A stretch of 64,000 bases of DNA from an uncultured Gammaproteobacteria bacterium (GTDB lineage Bacteria > Patescibacteriota > Patescibacteriia > Magasanikbacterales > GWA2-37-8). Within the stretch, counting starts at the first letter, position 1. The number at the start of each line of letters is the position of its first letter. This document shows, one piece after another, positions 1,758 to 47,515 of the stretch. Below the pieces are notes generated by a model. The model saw only the letters and a list, made by a program, of their open reading frames with translations, did no database searches and was not told the DNA's origin. Where the stretch lies: positions 64,477-128,476 of the forward strand of contig CAZINT010000002.1 of assembly GCA_964540825.1 (NCBI GenBank), in the 5' to 3' direction. The position numbers and the translations under genes are program-made.

Positions 1758-1786
1758 ACTCTTTATAGATCAATTATAAAAGCAAA

Positions 1787-1818
1787 GAACGAACGGTGAC
1801 GCGGCCGTTCGTTCAAAA
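1787..1818. terminator. bidirectional hairpin terminator between the ABC transporter gene and the convergent GC-rich small gene
   Basis: perfect 10-bp inverted repeat GAACGAACGG (1787-1796) / CCGTTCGTTC (1805-1814) with 8-nt loop; T-rich on the minus strand side, AAAATCTT on the plus side. Confidence 0.6.
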
Positions 1819-1837
1819 TCTTAGGACTTGTCCACCC

Positions 1838-2038
1838 CTAGAGCTTGCAGGGGGGCTCGGGTGGAGGGTCGTCAGGGGGCGGGGGAGGCGGAGGGGGCGG
1901 AGCCGAGGGCGGACCGGTAGGTTCTGGGCATGGATCTGGTCTTTCGGCGCTGAACCCGGTCGGATCAAAGCACTTTGCGGGAAGGACACGAGCAGTGCCC
2001 AGCGTGGACAGCAAGCTTATGGCAAGCAATGTGCGCAT
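1838..2038 (-). CDS. small secreted proline-rich peptide (about 66 aa) encoded in a GC-rich island
   Basis: strong SD GGAGGTG 8 nt upstream of ATG at 2038; N-terminal hydrophobic signal-like segment MRTLLAISLLSTLGTARV; poly-Pro tract PPPPPPPPPDDPPPEPP; 3 Cys; local GC far above window average. Confidence 0.5.
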   Translation of the reverse strand: MRTLLAISLLSTLGTARVLPAKCFDPTGFSAERPDPCPEPTGPPSAPPPPPPPPPDDPPPEPPCKL

Positions 2039-2068
2039 TCCTGTTTCACCTCCTTTCCGGTGCCAGGA

Positions 2069-2099
2069 TAAAGGTGCGGTTTCTTCGCACACCTTTTTA
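2069..2099 (+). terminator. hairpin plus T-run (terminator-like) in the leader region of the minus-strand peptide gene; function unclear
   Basis: AGGTGCG (2072-2078) ... CGCACACCT (2086-2094) imperfect stem followed by TTTTT. Confidence 0.3.
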
Positions 2100-2189
2100 G
2101 GTTTTTGCGTCGACTAACCTAAAAGCGAAGAAATTTACCCTAGCATCGTTTCCGGTCGACGTCAAGATACTTGCCAAAATAAGCCAAAT

Positions 2190-3284
2190 TTGATAGAGTT
2201 TATCGACTATATGGCTTCTCAATATCAACAACTTAAAGAAATTTTGGCTAAAGAGCCGCGATATCGCCAAAACCAAGTTCAAAAAGCTTGGTTTGATTGG
2301 AATATTTCCGGTTACGAACAAATTACGACTTTGCCCATTGATCTGCGCGAATCCCTGAAGGGCTTTCCTTGGTTTTCGGTAAATACCCATACGCTTTTAA
2401 CCAGCAAGGAAGACAATACTCGCAAAGTACTTTTGGAGCTCCACGACAAACAATACGTAGAAATGGTTATCATGGGCCGTGAAAATATTAAAAAAGATGC
2501 GAGTGATGACGCGCCCGACCGTTACACCATCTGCGTTTCTTGCCAAGCTGGCTGCCCTATGAAGTGTGCTTTTTGCGCGACCGGTAAACAGGGTTTTAAA
2601 CGCAATCTTTCGGCTCAAGAAATTGTTGATCAGTATCGCTACGCACAGAAAATTTTGGTTGGCGAAGGTGCGCGTGTGGCCAACATTGTGTTTATGGGTC
2701 AGGGAGAACCGATGCTTAATTATGAAAATGTTAAAGAAGCGATTAAAATTTTACTTGCCAACACTGACTTAGGAGAAACAAAAATCACTGTTTCTACAGC
2801 GGGCGTTGTACCGAGTATGGAAAAATTATTAAAGGATGATTTTCCCCCCGTGCGCTGGGCAATTTCGCTCCATAGCGCCATTGAAGCGTCGCGCAAAGAA
2901 ATTATGCCTTCAAACCCTAATGGTTTCTTAGATTTTTTGGTACGCTGGTCAAACGACTATCACACTCGTTTTCCAAGCAAGTCTCATTTTATCGGACTTG
3001 AGTATATTATGCTCGGCGGGGTAAACGATGACGAAAAACATCTGCAGGCACTCATCAAACTAATTCGTCGTATGCCGCACGTTCGGGTCAATTTGATTCC
3101 GTATAATAATATTTCTGATGAAATTGTTGATAACAAATCTGTTTTTGGACGCACCCCGCACGAACAAATCGAACACTGGCACGAAGAGATTATGAAGGCT
3201 GGCTTTATTTCAACTATTCGCTACTCGCAAGGGCAAGATATTGCCGCCGCGTGCGGACAGCTCCGGAACAAAGCAGAAGTCTAA
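2190..3284 (+). CDS. rlmN: 23S rRNA (adenine2503-C2)-methyltransferase RlmN, radical SAM
   Basis: CxxxCxxC radical SAM motif region CVSCQAGCPMKCAFCATG; RlmN-like N-terminus and C-terminal catalytic Cys (AAACGQL). Confidence 0.85.
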   Translation: MIEFIDYMASQYQQLKEILAKEPRYRQNQVQKAWFDWNISGYEQITTLPIDLRESLKGFPWFSVNTHTLLTSKEDNTRKVLLELHDKQYVEMVIMGRENIKKDASDDAPDRYTICVSCQAGCPMKCAFCATGKQGFKRNLSAQEIVDQYRYAQKILVGEGARVANIVFMGQGEPMLNYENVKEAIKILLANTDLGETKITVSTAGVVPSMEKLLKDDFPPVRWAISLHSAIEASRKEIMPSNPNGFLDFLVRWSNDYHTRFPSKSHFIGLEYIMLGGVNDDEKHLQALIKLIRRMPHVRVNLIPYNNISDEIVDNKSVFGRTPHEQIEHWHEEIMKAGFISTIRYSQGQDIAAACGQLRNKAEV

Positions 3285-3377: not shown

Positions 3378-6314
3378 ATGAAAACACTCAACACGGCCCA
3401 GCAGGAAGCGGTTGATTACGTCGGCGGCCCGCTGCTTATCGTAGCTGGAGCAGGAACCGGTAAAACGGCGGTAATTACCCAAAAAATAGCATCGCTCATT
3501 GAGCGCAAATTAGCGTTGCCTGAACAAGTTTTAGCGCTCACCTTTACTGATAAAGCCGCTGGAGAAATGCGCGAACGCGCAGACGCGTTGATCGGATCAA
3601 CCTATTCCTCGGTAGAAGTTTCAACTTTCCACTCATTTTGTCAGCGTATTCTGGAAGACTACGCTCTGGATATCGGTCTTCCAAATCGTTTTAAGCTTCT
3701 TACAACTACCGAAACATGGCTTCTTGTCCGCGAAAAATTGGATCGTTTTAAGCTTGATTACTATCGCCCGATGGCCAACCCGGAGCGGCATATCCATGAA
3801 CTCATTAAACACTTCAATAAATGTAAAGATGAGCTCGTTAGTCCGGAAGAATATTTGGCGCACGCTGAAAGTGTCGCCATGGAAGCCGGGGATACGAACG
3901 CGATTGAAAAAAATCGTTTATCTGAAGTTGCGAACGCGTACCATGTTTACAACCGGATACTGCTTGAAAATAACGCACTTGATTTTGGTGACTTATTATT
4001 CTATGTCATTAAACTGTTTCGTGAGCGCCCACACATTCTCTCTAAAATACAAAAACATTTTAAATTTATTCTTGTCGATGAATTCCAAGACGTTAATTGG
4101 GCACAGTATGTACTCGTTCGTCTCTTAGCCAACGATCAAAGTCAATTAACCGTGGTAGGGGATGATGACCAAAGTATTTACGCTTTTCGCGGGGCTTCAG
4201 TTTCCAATATTTTGCGTTTTAAAGACGATTTCCCAAATGCCAAAAATATTATTCTAACCAGTAACTACCGCTCTCAACAAATCATTCTTGATGCGGCATA
4301 TTGTCTCATCCAGAATAATAATCCCGATCGTCTTGAAGTTAAATTACAAATTGACAAACACTTAACTGCTGAGCTGCCCGTTACTGAAAAGGGCGTGATC
4401 GAACATATCAGCGTTGCTTCCGCCCACGACGAAGTCCGGGCTGTTTTAGAAAAAATAGCTGAACTCAAAAACCTTAATTCAGAAACAAAATGGTCAGACT
4501 TTGCAGTGTTGGCACGCGCTAACGGGCACCTTGAACCTTTTGTAGATGCGCTGGGGAAAGCTGGAATACCCTACGAATTTTTGGCTTCGAGCGGCCTGTA
4601 CAGTCAAAGCAGCATTTTAGATTGTCTTAATTTCTTTAAGGCCATAGTCAACAATCAGGATTCTACAGCTATCTATCGGCTTATTACCATGCCTTTTTTG
4701 CATTTGAGTGCCCATGATTTGCAGAAATTTACGTACCACGCCAAGAAAAAAAGTATTTCGTATGCAGAGGCGCTTAAACGGGCGCGTGAATTTGGTTTGT
4801 CGGAAGAGGGTGTTCAAACTATCGAGCGTGTCAGATCGTTTCTCAACGAAGGCGCTAAAGGAATAACAGCCAAAAAACCCTCCCTTTTGTTATTAGGTTT
4901 TCTTGACGCCAGCGGTTACAAACAATTTTTGGCCGACGAAGATATGGCCGGGCGTATGTCGATTAGCCGGCAGGCACTTCTCTTGACGCAGTTTTTGGAA
5001 GAAGTAATTGCTTATGAAATAGCTCACCCTGGCGAAGCGCATGTGGCCGGCTTTTTAGAACATTTCAACCACGTGGTTGAGTCAGGAGACGAAGGAAGTC
5101 TTAAGCAAAATCTTGATGTAGCGCACGAAGCTGTGCGAGTCATGACCGTGCACGCCTCAAAGGGTCTGGAATTTAAATATGTATTTGTAGTGAACGTTGT
5201 AGAAGAACGCTTTCCTACCCGCCGACGCGGGGAGGCAATCGAGTTACCTGCCGAACTGATTAAAGAACAGCTGCCGAGCGGAGATAGTCACTATGAAGAA
5301 GAGCGGCGTCTTATGTACGTAGCGGTTACACGCGCTAAAGACCGTTTGTACTGCACAAGCGCAAGTGACTACGGCGGCGTTCGAGCAAAAAAGGTGAGCC
5401 GATTTTTACATGAAATGAAGTGTGCGAATGGCGATGCGAAACTGTTTGTTCAAGAAAAGCCTGCGTTTATCGCTCCGGAACCAGAAAAAATAACCCCTTT
5501 TATATACGATACACCGGCCAGCTTTTCATTTTCGCAGCTTAAAAGCTACGAAACATGCCCGTATCAATACAAACTAGCCCACGTTATTAAAATCCCACAG
5601 CCAGCAGGGAACGCCAGCTTTAGCTTTGGGCAAACCATGCATAGCACCCTCCAAAAATTTTACGAACGCATGCAGGAATTGAATAGTTTAAAACAAGTGT
5701 CGCTTTTTAGCCAAGAACCAGCTCAAAAATCTGGCAATGAAATTAAAGTGCCGGCGTTTGAGGAACTCTTAAAAATATATGAGCAGGTTTGGATAGAGGA
5801 TTGGTACAAAGATAAAGCGCAGCGTGAAGAATATTACGCCAAAGGCAAAGAGATTTTAAGGACTTTTTATGCGAGTCATGAAGGAAAATGGAATGTACCA
5901 ATAACGCTCGAAGGCGGATTTAAGATTAAAGTCGGCGATTATCTTATTAATGGACGTATTGATCGCATTGATCAGTTGCCTGATGGCACCCTTGAAATCA
6001 TTGACTATAAAACCGGGAAACCCAAAGAAAAAATTGTTGGTAGCGATAAAGACCAGCTGCTTTTGTACCAAATCGCTACTGAAGAACTGCCTCAGTATCG
6101 TCATTTAGGTGCAACGCAAAAATTAACCTTTTATTATCTTAATGATAATAGCCAAATTTCTTTTGTCGGTTCAGAAAAAGAGCTTGCAACACTTAAGGAA
6201 AAATTAATTGAAACAATCAATCAGATTCGTTCTGGTGACTTTACTCCTACGCCAAGTACGTTTGTTTGCGGCAGCTGCCCCTATAAAGATATTTGTGCTT
6301 ATCGTGTACTATGA
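3378..6314 (+). CDS. UvrD/PcrA-family ATP-dependent helicase fused to a C-terminal PD-(D/E)XK Cas4/AddB-type Fe-S nuclease domain
   Basis: N-terminal MKTLNTAQQEAV...GAGTGKT (Walker A), DEFQD (Walker B), VVGDDDQSIYAFRGA; C-terminal GRIDRID...EIIDYKTGK nuclease motifs plus Cys set ETCPYQY ... CGSCPYKDIC typical of Fe-S RecB-like nucleases; ATG at 3378 chosen over the upstream TTG of the ORF track. Confidence 0.85.
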   Translation: MKTLNTAQQEAVDYVGGPLLIVAGAGTGKTAVITQKIASLIERKLALPEQVLALTFTDKAAGEMRERADALIGSTYSSVEVSTFHSFCQRILEDYALDIGLPNRFKLLTTTETWLLVREKLDRFKLDYYRPMANPERHIHELIKHFNKCKDELVSPEEYLAHAESVAMEAGDTNAIEKNRLSEVANAYHVYNRILLENNALDFGDLLFYVIKLFRERPHILSKIQKHFKFILVDEFQDVNWAQYVLVRLLANDQSQLTVVGDDDQSIYAFRGASVSNILRFKDDFPNAKNIILTSNYRSQQIILDAAYCLIQNNNPDRLEVKLQIDKHLTAELPVTEKGVIEHISVASAHDEVRAVLEKIAELKNLNSETKWSDFAVLARANGHLEPFVDALGKAGIPYEFLASSGLYSQSSILDCLNFFKAIVNNQDSTAIYRLITMPFLHLSAHDLQKFTYHAKKKSISYAEALKRAREFGLSEEGVQTIERVRSFLNEGAKGITAKKPSLLLLGFLDASGYKQFLADEDMAGRMSISRQALLLTQFLEEVIAYEIAHPGEAHVAGFLEHFNHVVESGDEGSLKQNLDVAHEAVRVMTVHASKGLEFKYVFVVNVVEERFPTRRRGEAIELPAELIKEQLPSGDSHYEEERRLMYVAVTRAKDRLYCTSASDYGGVRAKKVSRFLHEMKCANGDAKLFVQEKPAFIAPEPEKITPFIYDTPASFSFSQLKSYETCPYQYKLAHVIKIPQPAGNASFSFGQTMHSTLQKFYERMQELNSLKQVSLFSQEPAQKSGNEIKVPAFEELLKIYEQVWIEDWYKDKAQREEYYAKGKEILRTFYASHEGKWNVPITLEGGFKIKVGDYLINGRIDRIDQLPDGTLEIIDYKTGKPKEKIVGSDKDQLLLYQIATEELPQYRHLGATQKLTFYYLNDNSQISFVGSEKELATLKEKLIETINQIRSGDFTPTPSTFVCGSCPYKDICAYRVL

Positions 6315-19474: not shown

Positions 19475-19924
19475 ATGAACCGACTCGGAAACTTCCTCGC
19501 CGCAGCCGCCCTCACACTGCCCCTGTTCGGGTGCTACAACCCGGACCTGTCGTCGGGCAAGTTCCGTTGCGACAACAGCGCGCGCAGCTGCCCCGACGGG
19601 CAGGTGTGCTTGCCGTTCGCGAACCAGGGCCTGTTCTGCGTCAAGCCCCAGGAGTGCTGGCAGACGATGCTCGACTGCCAGCGCACGTGCCGCGACAGCG
19701 CCTGTTCGGCGATCTGCCGCAACATGGCGGTCAACGTGCAGAGCACGAGGATCGCCTTCAGCGTCTTCGCCGGCTGCATCGAGCAGCAGTGCCAGGGCAC
19801 CGCCCAGGGCAGCTCCAGCTGCGGGCCCGAGGCTGACGACCTGTCCTGCATCACCTGCATCCAGGACGTCTCGGCGGCCGGCGGCGCCTGCGCGGCCCAG
19901 GCCAAGACCTGCCTCACGAACTAG
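19475..19924 (+). CDS. Cys-rich secreted lipoprotein (149 aa) encoded in a GC-rich island (about 68% GC)
   Basis: signal peptide MNRLGNFLAAAALTLPLFGC with lipobox L-F-G-C; about 20 Cys in the mature part; strong GC3 codon bias unlike neighbouring genes; SD upstream. Confidence 0.7.
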   Translation: MNRLGNFLAAAALTLPLFGCYNPDLSSGKFRCDNSARSCPDGQVCLPFANQGLFCVKPQECWQTMLDCQRTCRDSACSAICRNMAVNVQSTRIAFSVFAGCIEQQCQGTAQGSSSCGPEADDLSCITCIQDVSAAGGACAAQAKTCLTN

Positions 19925-21626: not shown

Positions 21627-21639
21627 TTTAAAAAACAAA

Positions 21640-21658
21640 AACGGTAACTTTTACCGTT
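21640..21658. terminator. bidirectional rho-independent terminator
   Basis: AAAAACAAAAACGGTAActtTTACCGTTTTTG; A-run and T-run flank an 8-bp stem. Confidence 0.8.
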
Positions 21659-21745
21659 TTTGAAAATAATTGCGATTCGCATTTGGTCTTGAACGCAATA
21701 AAGTCTCGAGTTAAAGCATCTAGTCCTCTTGCTCTAATAACTTAA

Positions 21746-21833
21746 TTATTTTTTTTTCTTCCTTGGCATTTTAATTTCACCTCCTTTCTTCTTAAGAAGA
21801 AACTAATATACCATATATACTTTTGTCAATCAA
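21746..21833 (-). other. compact unit on the minus strand just downstream of the AKR gene: promoter-like sequence, 18-bp perfect palindrome, strong SD, 7-codon ORF (MPRKKKK)
   Basis: -35 TTGATT, 17-nt spacer, extended -10 TGgTATATT; palindrome TTTCTTCTTAAGAAGAAA (21785-21802); SD AGGAGGTG 8 nt before ATG 21769; ORF ATG CCA AGG AAG AAA AAA AAA TAA ends 21746; the bidirectional terminator at 21640 lies about 100 nt downstream. Confidence 0.35.
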
Positions 21834-34560: not shown

Positions 34561-34926
34561 TCACAGGCCGCCGAAGCGCCTACCAGGAGAACCGGTACGC
34601 TCCCGCTCCTCATACAGGTCCGGCACGTCGACCAGAAGACCCGCCTCCATTGAGGCACGGCCAGCCTTATCGGCCTCCTCTCTACTCATTCGCTCATCGA
34701 GCTGGGCGTGCAGGTAGTCCGCCAGCAAGGACGTGACGATCGCCGGCTGCGTAGTGAGGTCGAAGGAGCCGTCGGGCTCGAACTTGAACCCGCTGCCGAG
34801 CAGCACATCCTTCGCATTCTTGAGGTGCTGACGGGCTGCCAGCCAGCGCCTCATAGCGGCCAAAGCCAGCTCAAAAATTTTGATGGCGCTCGTGATCTCC
34901 TCGTGAGAATCGAACTTTGGACCCAT
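34561..34926 (-). CDS. hypothetical protein (121 aa) in a GC-rich island (about 60% GC)
   Basis: SD GGAGGTG 7 nt upstream of ATG 34926; promoter TTGTCA-N17-TATATA upstream; GC3-biased codons unlike neighbours; no recognisable domain. Confidence 0.55.
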   Translation of the reverse strand: MGPKFDSHEEITSAIKIFELALAAMRRWLAARQHLKNAKDVLLGSGFKFEPDGSFDLTTQPAIVTSLLADYLHAQLDERMSREEADKAGRASMEAGLLVDVPDLYEERERTGSPGRRFGGL

Positions 34927-46587: not shown

Positions 46588-46821
46588 CTAGTGCTGGAGC
46601 GGAACGAGGCGCTTGAGCTGCCCCGGGCGGCGCTTGGCGATCCGGGCCAAACGTTCCTGGCTACTCAGCCCGCGCTTGCGCTGGAGGATCGTCCGCGGCG
46701 GGTGACGCATCGTCCACTCGCCCTCACCACGGGTTCGTGCCCGCGGTTCACGCCTTAGTCGGCGTTCTTTCTTCTCCTTTCGCCGACCCTTTTCACGTCC
46801 CGGAACTTTTTCTCGTACCAT
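46588..46821 (-). CDS. very basic Arg/Lys-rich small protein (77 aa) in a GC-rich island
   Basis: SD AAGGAGG 5 nt before ATG 46821; promoter TTGACG-N17-TGgTATAGC upstream; about 40% R+K; no recognisable domain. Confidence 0.4.
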   Translation of the reverse strand: MVREKVPGREKGRRKEKKERRLRREPRARTRGEGEWTMRHPPRTILQRKRGLSSQERLARIAKRRPGQLKRLVPLQH

Positions 46822-47026: not shown

Positions 47027-47515
47027 CTAGGGCACCGAATACGGAAACAGGTCGTTCCAAAGACCCTCTGTGCACTCGTTCGCACCTGTATACGCACGAA
47101 GCGTTATGTGGCCCTGCGCATCAACCAGCAGGCAGATCGGATACGGAACCAGCCAGCCCTTTTGTGCGAACAATTTACACCGCTCGTGATCTTTGCGCAG
47201 CTCGCAAAAGCGTGTCGAGATATCACGTCGGAACAGTTCCCATTCTTCTTGCGCTTCATTACCTGTGCCTTCTTCTTTGTGCACCGACGAGACGCTGATG
47301 AGTCCCGGGTGTTCATCGGCACGGGTTTTGAGCCAACCCATCGTCCACCAGCAAGCTTCGCAGTGGTTTCCCCCAAGAACTACAACCTCGTACTTCGTTT
47401 TTACCACAGGCTCGCTGTAGTTAAGTTGTTTCGCAACGAGCACGTGGCCCACAAACAGAATCGAAAAGAGGCCCGAGAAAAGCAAGAAAACTCTTGATTT
47501 GAGTAGCGTTGCCAT
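47027..47515 (-). CDS. secreted protein with CxxC motif (HCEACW), possible thiol-disulfide oxidoreductase-like
   Basis: signal peptide MATLLKSRVFLLFSGLFSILFVGHVLVA; VVVLGGNHCEACWW resembles a thioredoxin-fold active site; SD GGGGAAG before ATG; GC about 55%. Confidence 0.45.
   Translation of the reverse strand: MATLLKSRVFLLFSGLFSILFVGHVLVAKQLNYSEPVVKTKYEVVVLGGNHCEACWWTMGWLKTRADEHPGLISVSSVHKEEGTGNEAQEEWELFRRDISTRFCELRKDHERCKLFAQKGWLVPYPICLLVDAQGHITLRAYTGANECTEGLWNDLFPYSVP

Follow-up and report, generated by a model that had tools for sequence, protein, structure and literature searches.

The segment between positions 1758 and 2210 of a 64,000-nt stretch of contig CAZINT010000002.1 (assembly GCA_964540825.1, positions 64,477 to 128,476 of the forward strand) carries a short minus-strand gene, and we are fairly confident that this gene is a real, expressed protein-coding cassette. 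We refer to the whole 64-kb stretch as the window and use its numbering unless another contig is named. The gene specifies a proline-rich peptide of 66 amino acids (aa) which, judging from its sequence, is probably a Sec-exported, fast-evolving orphan in a recombination-prone variable locus. It is an orphan in a familiar category, that of small accessory proteins that are secreted and encoded at variable loci. As we envisage it, a promoter-like site, a structured 5′ leader, a perfect Shine-Dalgarno (SD) sequence, an open reading frame (ORF) of 66 codons and an intrinsic terminator would make up a complete minus-strand cassette of one gene, which would have been inserted between two ancestrally adjacent genes, for an ABC exporter and for RlmN, in a Magasanikbacteria-like bacterium of the candidate phyla radiation (CPR, or Patescibacteria). 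A diverged counterpart is found in a second species, called L002 below. The features of the cassette are the following.

1758-2210, no strand: variable segment of 453 bp between the stop of the ABC exporter gene (1757) and the start of rlmN (2211)
1838-2038, minus strand: peptide ORF, 66 codons plus TAG, with its ATG at 2038-2036 and its stop TAG at 1840-1838
1991-2038, minus strand: predicted Sec signal peptide, residues 1-16 (MR / TLLAISLLSTL / GTA), with putative cleavage between GTA and RV
1850-1912, minus strand: proline-rich tract, residues 43-63, between the conserved C37 (1928-1930) and C64 (1847-1849)
2055-2046, minus strand: perfect SD sequence AAGGAGGTGA, 7 nt before the ATG
1778-1814, minus strand: intrinsic terminator of the peptide gene, a 10-bp stem (1787-1814) followed by UUUGCUUUU
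2080-2133, minus strand: long 5′-leader hairpin, ~18 bp with a bulge
2074-2090, tail to 2099, plus strand: small hairpin and T-run, overlapping the 3′ arm of the long leader stem
2165-2137, minus strand: candidate promoter of the peptide gene, TTGACG (2165-2160), 17 nt, TAGGGT (2142-2137)
2171-2199, plus strand: divergent promoter-like site for rlmN, TTGCCA-17-TAGAGT with a TG extension

A reading of the region from its letters alone (the sequence-only reading) had proposed a minus-strand ORF of 66 aa with a signal-like start, three cysteines and an uninterrupted proline tract, and all of these are present. The ORF translates as MRTLLAISLLSTLGTARVLPAKCFDPTGFSAERPDPCPEPTGPPSAPPPPPPPPPDDPPPEPPCKL, with cysteines at positions 23, 37 and 64 and an unbroken proline tract, PPPPPPPPPDDPPPEPP, that includes a run of nine prolines (P9) at 1874-1900. 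Its GC content is 66%, and the GC profile climbs from ~0.43 to 0.75-0.80 precisely across the ORF and comes back down in the leader. The GC content at third codon positions (GC3) is 0.62 in the window and 0.69 in L002, as against 0.42-0.43 in the neighbours and the long genes of the window; proline codons are thus not the sole cause of the GC enrichment, and the composition of the peptide gene is foreign-like. A jump from 0.43 to 0.80 within ~200 bp is abrupt enough to suggest that the island is an assembly chimera or a high-GC contamination. We regard this as exceedingly improbable, given that the same junctions recur in a separate Logan assembly (contig L001/L178 of run SRR11567520, 100% identical across the island), which rules out an artefact of a single assembler, and that the diverged homologous island stands at the same site in another project's metagenome-assembled genome, with host-like flanks on both sides. 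The length of the ORF is not significant alone; at ~68% GC about one in four random 66-codon frames would be open, and four overlapping frames are open in the island. What exceeds chance is the combination of an ATG, a perfect SD, a leader-like N-terminus and a minus-strand terminator, together with conservation in L002.

The L002 island contains a 78-aa ORF (3436-3672 of its contig; MRLAAALILASLAGSASAAPERGG...DDPCPEPQQPQPPPPPPPPAPEPEPLPPPPCTL) in the corresponding position and likewise on the minus strand, and the two peptides are 47% identical. Both keep the ATG, an M-R start followed by a hydrophobic core, the DPCPEP motif, the polyproline run, the C-terminal PPC-x-L and an aligned TAG. C37 and C64 are common to both, and C23 is unconserved (serine in L002). 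Among the aligned codons, 18 differ synonymously only, including a change of the arginine codon CGC to AGA, and the differences at the three codon positions number 26/26/45. A glycine-rich frame antisense to the proline frame has the same wobble positions, so this third-position excess cannot separate the strands, and a frame-by-frame comparison of translations was used instead of the strand-blind codon-position test. In a frame-agnostic DNA alignment of the two ORFs the N-terminal half proved too noisy for use. The minus-strand ORF frame had the highest cross-species protein similarity (frame-specific z ~9), scoring 144 over the whole region and 59 over the N-terminal part without polyproline, a value reached by none of 2000 shuffles; the corresponding scores of the antisense frame were 105 and 34, and 21 of 2000 shuffles reached the latter. 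This conservation, with the best frame at 144 against 105, upholds the central proposal of the sequence-only reading, a minus-strand gene for a small proline-rich peptide bearing a signal peptide. That reading had also asked whether homologous islands retain the ORF and whether the peptide has relatives: L002, the sole homologous island found, keeps the ORF at the same site, but the protein databases yielded no homologue.

The same comparison bears on the idea that the true gene is the plus-strand glycine-rich ORF itself (1845-2117, 90 aa), the frame of which is uninterrupted in the window as in L002 and, sharing the wobble positions, fits the codon-position pattern equally well. Its similarity between the species is lower (105 vs 144 and 34 vs 59), it has TTG or GTG starts, no SD and no hydrophobic leader, and neither its N-terminus nor its C-terminus is conserved. 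It runs across the SD and leader of the minus-strand gene and ends differently in the two species, and the sole good terminator lies upstream of it in the opposite orientation. We consider it highly improbable that this ORF is the gene. As had been pointed out from the sequence, the plus-strand ORFs of the island lack an ATG, having GTG or TTG starts only (1796, 1828, 1845 and 1975), and two of them cross the 2074-2090 hairpin.

The SD had been singled out as the strongest in the window; it is perfect, but shares that rank with an identical 10-mer, since AAGGAGGTGA occurs twice in the 64 kb, the second time at 21777-21786. The island had further been placed between convergent terminators, and here the two sides differ. 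The left hairpin is the minus-strand terminator of the peptide gene itself; it begins 23 nt beyond the peptide stop, folds with -15.9 kcal/mol (z = -3.35) and has the make-up of a rho-independent terminator, a minus-strand stem followed by a U-tract (UUUGCUUUU in the window, UCUGUUUUUU in L002), while no U-tract follows the hairpin on the plus strand. Of its 28 stem-loop bases, 26 are identical in L002, where one C-G pair is replaced by a compensatory U-A pair. A U-tract on the minus side only, in both species, implies a minus-strand transcript. The right hairpin, which had been noticed together with its T-run in the presumed leader, does exist at 2074-2099, but it is unremarkable, folding no better than shuffles (z = -1.15), and is unconserved in L002 (z = -0.99). 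Further upstream, TTGACG-17-TAGGGT was read by eye and falls under the threshold of the promoter scan (8/12), which makes it a candidate promoter only; its aligned counterpart in L002 is TTGACC-17-TAGGCT. Together with the divergent site for rlmN, which is conserved in L002 as well, it belongs to a promoter block, GTCAAGATACTTGCCAAAATAAGCNAAATTTG, of ~36 nt with back-to-back -35 elements, ~33/36 of which are identical between the two species.

The long leader hairpin deserves separate mention. The leader folds with -29.4 kcal/mol (z = -2.57), and L002 has an equivalent long hairpin; folding the alignment shows 2 compensatory pairs. This conservation, and the fact that the long stem (2080-2133) and the small hairpin (2074-2090) are mutually exclusive, would suit a structured regulatory or small RNA, such as a leader with alternative hairpins; a weak stem that can pair part of the SD would also be in keeping with it. 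The hairpins, though, are situated outside the ORF and would be consistent with an mRNA leader, and the minus strand offers no downstream gene for such an element to control: the terminator comes next, and after it the convergent ABC gene. Nor does either strand match an Rfam family, a covariance scan that the sequence-only reading had named as a check on its proposal: at gathering thresholds the whole window gave 0 matches, a permissive search of 1700-2250 returned as its best tmRNA, with 10.3 bits against a threshold of 47, and SNORA27, with E = 6.2, and a tRNA/tmRNA search found none. We therefore judge a dedicated RNA element to be very unlikely.

Within the minus-strand leader, the predicted fold of 2039-2068 pairs the GGUG of the SD with a CACC that lies 5 nt upstream of it, and the bases directly before the AUG with CCUGG; L002 shows a similar weak ACC/GGU pairing. 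Such pairing could partially mask the SD in the folded model, with a very short stem.

Besides the strand-blind codon pattern, several observations weigh against a functional peptide gene. DNA identity between the window and L002 ORFs is ~52%, which is not above the neutral proxy, the third-position identity in the ABC and rlmN genes (54-55%). ORFs of this length are not unusual in DNA of 66-70% GC, and several frames, the antisense glycine-rich one among them, are open in both the window and L002. The gene caller behind the Logan contig L001 left the 453-bp gap empty, and L001 apparently derives from the same organism and sample as the window and is not independent of it; L002 is the one diverged homologue found (n=1). 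Searches of 1.8-5.8 billion proteins and of protein families gave no homologue of known role. A run of nine prolines is, moreover, difficult to translate, depending on elongation factor P (EF-P). The ABC and rlmN genes, too, might make some use of the conserved terminator and promoter block.

The low ORF identity, the several open frames, the gap left empty by the gene caller and the lack of protein homologues would fit a GC-rich core that a past insertion left behind as a spacer, non-coding or in decay, with an open frame that merely follows from its high GC content and with function confined to the flanking hairpin and promoter block, on behalf of the ABC and rlmN genes. The spacer explanation has to account, however, for the retention of the ATG, SD, stop, leader-like N-terminus, DPCPEP and PPC-x-L in spite of divergence at saturation level, for the frame-specific protein similarity (z ~9), for a U-tract on the minus side only and for a perfect SD at optimal spacing. 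We consider it unlikely. In a peptide gene, an ORF identity at the level of the neutral proxy means that constraint falls on certain features, most residues being free or diversifying; the non-coding parts (terminator, promoter block and leader hairpin) are conserved far beyond the proxy.

The surroundings of the peptide gene show that it sits in an insert. On the left, the ABC exporter gene (ABC_membrane + ABC_tran) extends past the edge of the window and stops at 1757; on the right, rlmN (2211-3284) belongs to the housekeeping 23S rRNA methyltransferase family, and the named sequences closest to its product come from Candidatus Magasanikbacteria (CPR/Patescibacteria; 54-66% identity). Only 10-49 bp separate the ABC stop from the rlmN start in more distant Magasanikbacteria (L004, L005, L006 and L181), as against 453 bp in the window, and the island is thus an insert between ancestrally adjacent genes. 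Relatives at an intermediate distance hold other genes at this junction: a small membrane protein and a 115-aa ORF in L162, small Cys-rich ORFs in L163 and L164, a DUF6909 protein in L179 and glnA in L167. Horizontal gene transfer and genomic islands are documented in Patescibacteria (PMC12455944). The island itself contains no integrase, repeat or att-like (attachment-site) sequence, and a repeat search of the 64-kb window found no repeat involving it, and hence no template/variable repeat pair of the kind that marks a diversity-generating retroelement target.

Among the closest relatives, with RlmN 87-96% identical, the gap between the ABC and rlmN genes carries one of two types of cargo. 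Type A is the minus-strand polyproline peptide (window and L002). Type B is a signal-peptide-bearing protein of ~140 aa encoded on the plus strand (L003, L169-L174 and L175-L177), the cassettes for which were located in the ABC-rlmN gap as follows.

L003, 3503-3928, plus strand: type B cassette
L169, 2517-2927, plus strand: type B cassette
L175, 2471-2917, plus strand: type B cassette

The type B proteins are rich in Trp and Tyr and have six invariant cysteines in the mature region, within the motif WC.E...EL...WRC.YGG...C.P.A.L.Y..FL...L..CG..C.G..N.D. They are mutually 36-54% identical, while their RlmN neighbours are ~90% identical, and their GC3 is raised (0.55-0.60); a single-sequence AlphaFold2 (AF2) model had a predicted local distance difference test (pLDDT) score of 40 and was unusable. 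Types A and B differ throughout the stretch that starts at the ABC stop codon and reaches the rlmN promoter's -10 region. The flanks tell two stories. In the left flank (atpC, ABC) the window groups with L002 at 90-91.5% aa identity, and type B genomes are at 74-83% from both and from each other; in the right flank (rlmN, helicase) the window, L002, L003 and L169 are mutually 88-97% identical, and over rlmN positions 601-900 the window is closer to L169 (83-86%) than to L002 (71-77%). These different relationships to the left and to the right indicate a recombination breakpoint at the cassette. An idea first suggested by the RlmN identities, that types A and B interleave on the species tree, was dropped, as atpC and ABC join the window with L002. 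An RlmN-based metagenome scan revealed no further close relatives.

The exchange of cargo resembles that of replacement-type flexible genomic islands, in which variable cassettes between core genes are swapped by recombination in the flanks, and which have been described for surface-structure loci. As in those islands, the ABC-rlmN junction holds unrelated, mutually exclusive cargo in close relatives, the flanks imply a recombination breakpoint and the cargo is of the secreted or surface type; unlike them, the locus is tiny (one gene, ~450 bp), lies in a CPR host and has no integrase, repeat or att-like sequence. The rapid divergence of the peptide, and the occurrence of a different secreted protein in its place in sister genomes, would fit a role at the cell surface or the host interface.

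Two observations concern the records used for these comparisons. L002 (CAZECR010000014.1), L003 (CAZWKA010000004.1) and L004 (CAYUBH010000006.1) are labelled 'uncultured Gammaproteobacteria'; this label is probably wrong, as RlmN and gene order match Candidatus Magasanikbacteria / Patescibacteria. Just upstream of rlmN, L002 has a run of Ns (3823-3922) flanked by a duplicated segment of ~63 bp (AATTCAGCCTAGCACGATAATGG...AAGCGA), a duplication that looks like a scaffolding or overlap artefact rather than biology.

Several properties of the peptide itself speak for export. The leader in the window has a hydropathy of 2.30 over residues 4-13 and a site that obeys the -3/-1 rule; that of L002 reads MR / LAAALILASLA / ASA, with the site before AP, and hydropathy in the two leaders is 2.3-2.6. 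By a heuristic check, which asked for a positively charged n-region, a hydrophobic region of 7-15 residues and small residues at -3/-1 within about 15-30 residues, both have the characteristics of Sec signal peptides cleaved by signal peptidase I (SPase I). Export through Sec, with cleavage near residue 16, is thus the most likely fate of the peptide, as far as its sequence allows such a prediction. In the AF2 model residues 2-14 form a helix and the remainder is extended; the proline tract is neither helix nor strand and has the highest pLDDT of the model (68-80). The predicted mature peptides carry a net charge of -3 in both species and are 35-44% proline. A polyproline-II (PPII) helix rises by 3.1 Å per residue, and a PPII rod of ~28 residues would be roughly 85 Å long. 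We thus picture Sec export and cleavage as releasing an acidic peptide (net -3) of ~50 residues, the C-terminal half of which would be such a PPII rod (~28 residues) set between two conserved cysteines (DPC...PPC-x-L-COOH). Outside the cell it might act as a rigid spacer or adhesion element that could be disulfide-linked to itself or to partner proteins, and it might form part of a fast-evolving, exchangeable surface or secretome repertoire of an episymbiotic cell.

Several known classes of exported protein do not accommodate the peptide. A lipobox of bacterial lipoproteins (signal peptidase II, SPase II) is lacking, C23 being preceded by P-A-K and replaced by Ser in L002. P-E-P occurs at residues 38-40, but the C-terminus, PPCKL, has no hydrophobic helix of the PEP-CTERM / exosortase kind, and neither peptide has the LPXTG motif of sortase substrates or a C-terminal hydrophobic stretch. 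A twin-arginine (Tat) motif and a double-glycine leader are absent from the peptide. A precursor of a bacteriocin or of a ribosomally synthesised and post-translationally modified peptide (RiPP) with a double-glycine leader was rejected: there is no GG motif, the ABC protein has only ABC_membrane and ABC_tran, the adjacency of the ABC gene to rlmN is older than the peptide, and rlmN encodes a housekeeping methyltransferase, not a maturase. A search of the PDB gave no significant match; the only resemblance was to the precursor of bovine pancreatic trypsin inhibitor (BPTI; E = 0.15), which resembles the peptide in its leader and in RPD-C-EP-TGP. There is no Kunitz domain, and a Kunitz/BPTI inhibitor was rejected as a chance resemblance because the motif is absent from L002.

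Some better-known proteins are nonetheless instructive by analogy. The spacer of TonB is a Glu-Pro / Lys-Pro rod that spans the periplasm, and our peptide, too, has an acidic X-Pro and polyproline stretch from which a rigid PPII rod would be expected in the envelope. The peptide differs in having no N-terminal anchor and no C-terminal domain and in its length (66 aa vs ~240 aa), and the likeness implies no homology, the match being non-significant: TonB was rejected with no Pfam match and with NCBIfam NF008082 at E = 0.71 and 9.6 bits against a 265-bit cut-off, for the L002 peptide only. The hinge cores of immunoglobulins (CPxCP / CPEP) consist of disulfide-linked polyproline helices; the C-P-E-P motif and the cysteine-bracketed polyproline of the peptide would be compatible with parallel PPII rods joined by disulfides, a structural analogy drawn by inspection of motifs between proteins of unrelated origin. 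Proline-rich antimicrobial peptides (PrAMPs) such as Bac7, oncocin and apidaecin are also small, exported and rich in proline, but these come from animals, are strongly cationic and contain PRP-type motifs, whereas the mature peptide here would be acidic (net -3 in both species) with an unbroken P9; a PrAMP was rejected on this ground, the predicted charge being not strongly positive. The small secreted cysteine-rich effectors of fungi and oomycetes offer a further parallel, as they too are short, with a signal peptide, few conserved cysteines, no homologues, rapid divergence and a place in a variable compartment of the genome; our peptide, known here from its sequence, is bacterial and dominated by proline rather than of the Cys-knot type.

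The orphan status of the peptide is borne out by every search made. No match to it was found in Pfam, NCBIfam, PHROGs or PADLOC. Word and profile searches of 5.8 billion proteins with both peptides gave no match, PPPPP words saturating the search, and an exhaustive phmmer search of 1.84 billion representatives returned two repeat proteins only, both spurious (summed weak matches). By exact look-up, neither peptide has ever been called as a gene. Blastn searches of phages and plasmids and a scan of IMG/VR were without match, and we found no description in the literature of GC-rich single-gene secreted cassettes or of a polyproline peptide of this kind.

The window contains further GC-rich single-gene cassettes, most of them with a TTGAC-type promoter-like site, a strong SD and a terminator. 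One, island 2 (19475-19924, plus strand, with terminators to ~20010), encodes a lipoprotein-like protein of 149 aa (MNRLGNFLAAAALTLPLFGC...) with ~20 cysteines. Its GC3 is 0.95 in a genome of 44% GC; an AT-rich, native-looking promoter and SD extend as far as the ATG, and past the stop comes a GC-rich terminator. No homologue of this protein was found among 5.8 billion proteins, and no family match. Island 3 (34561-34926, minus strand) encodes 121 aa with a GC3 of 0.75, an SD (GGAGGTG) and a terminator, and its product has no signal peptide and no family match. A third such cassette, at 46588-46821 (minus strand), specifies an extremely Arg/Lys-rich, basic protein of 77 aa, with the SD AAGGAGG and a GC-rich terminator; it adjoins another GC-rich cassette, at 47027-47515 (minus strand), for a possibly thioredoxin-like protein of 162 aa that has a membrane anchor at its N-terminus and the CXXC motif CEAC. 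Neither of these two proteins has a family match. Within the 64-kb window the GC-rich islands have no DNA repeats in common, whether resembling miniature inverted-repeat transposable elements (MITEs), diversity-generating retroelements (DGRs) or att sites. Import from high-GC donors is the simplest explanation of these cassettes; no donor was identified, the search with the island 2 protein having given no homologue.

The second copy of the SD belongs to a unit of another kind (21630-21830, minus strand). A promoter-like TTGACA-17-TATATT is followed there by the second perfect SD (AAAGGAGGTGA, 21777-21786) and then by a mini-ORF of 7 codons, ATG CCA AGG AAG AAA AAA AAA TAA (MPRKKKK and stop); ~75 nt past it lies a strong terminator (AAAAACGGTAAAAGTTACCGTTTTTGTTTTTT). 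The unit, which has no Rfam match, may be a leader peptide or a small RNA unit.

A broader reading, which we put forward as quite unlikely, would join these threads. The locus would be a recombination hot spot through which an episymbiotic CPR bacterium diversifies its secretome, with the peptide as one among at least two alternative cargoes. The peptide gene would at the same time be a member of a genome-wide set of GC-rich orphan single-gene cassettes with their own promoter, strong SD and terminator (at least 5 in the 64-kb window, one with a GC3 of 0.95), and these cassettes would have come from high-GC partners or hosts, or else from a mobile gene pool as yet unsampled. The polyproline rod of the peptide, with its bracketing cysteines, would in that case serve in host interaction or attachment and be subject to diversifying selection.

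The more limited proposal, a small exported peptide encoded by a single-gene cassette, would already be of consequence for this group. CPR/Patescibacteria live attached to other cells, and the molecules of that interface are almost wholly unknown. If real, the peptide would be a testable candidate for such a molecule, since with 50 residues, a PPII rod and two cysteines it could be synthesised chemically, and the ABC-rlmN locus would mark a site at which surface or secreted cargo is exchanged between close relatives. Standard gene callers skip compositionally atypical mini-genes, and the small secretome of CPR bacteria is therefore probably under-annotated.

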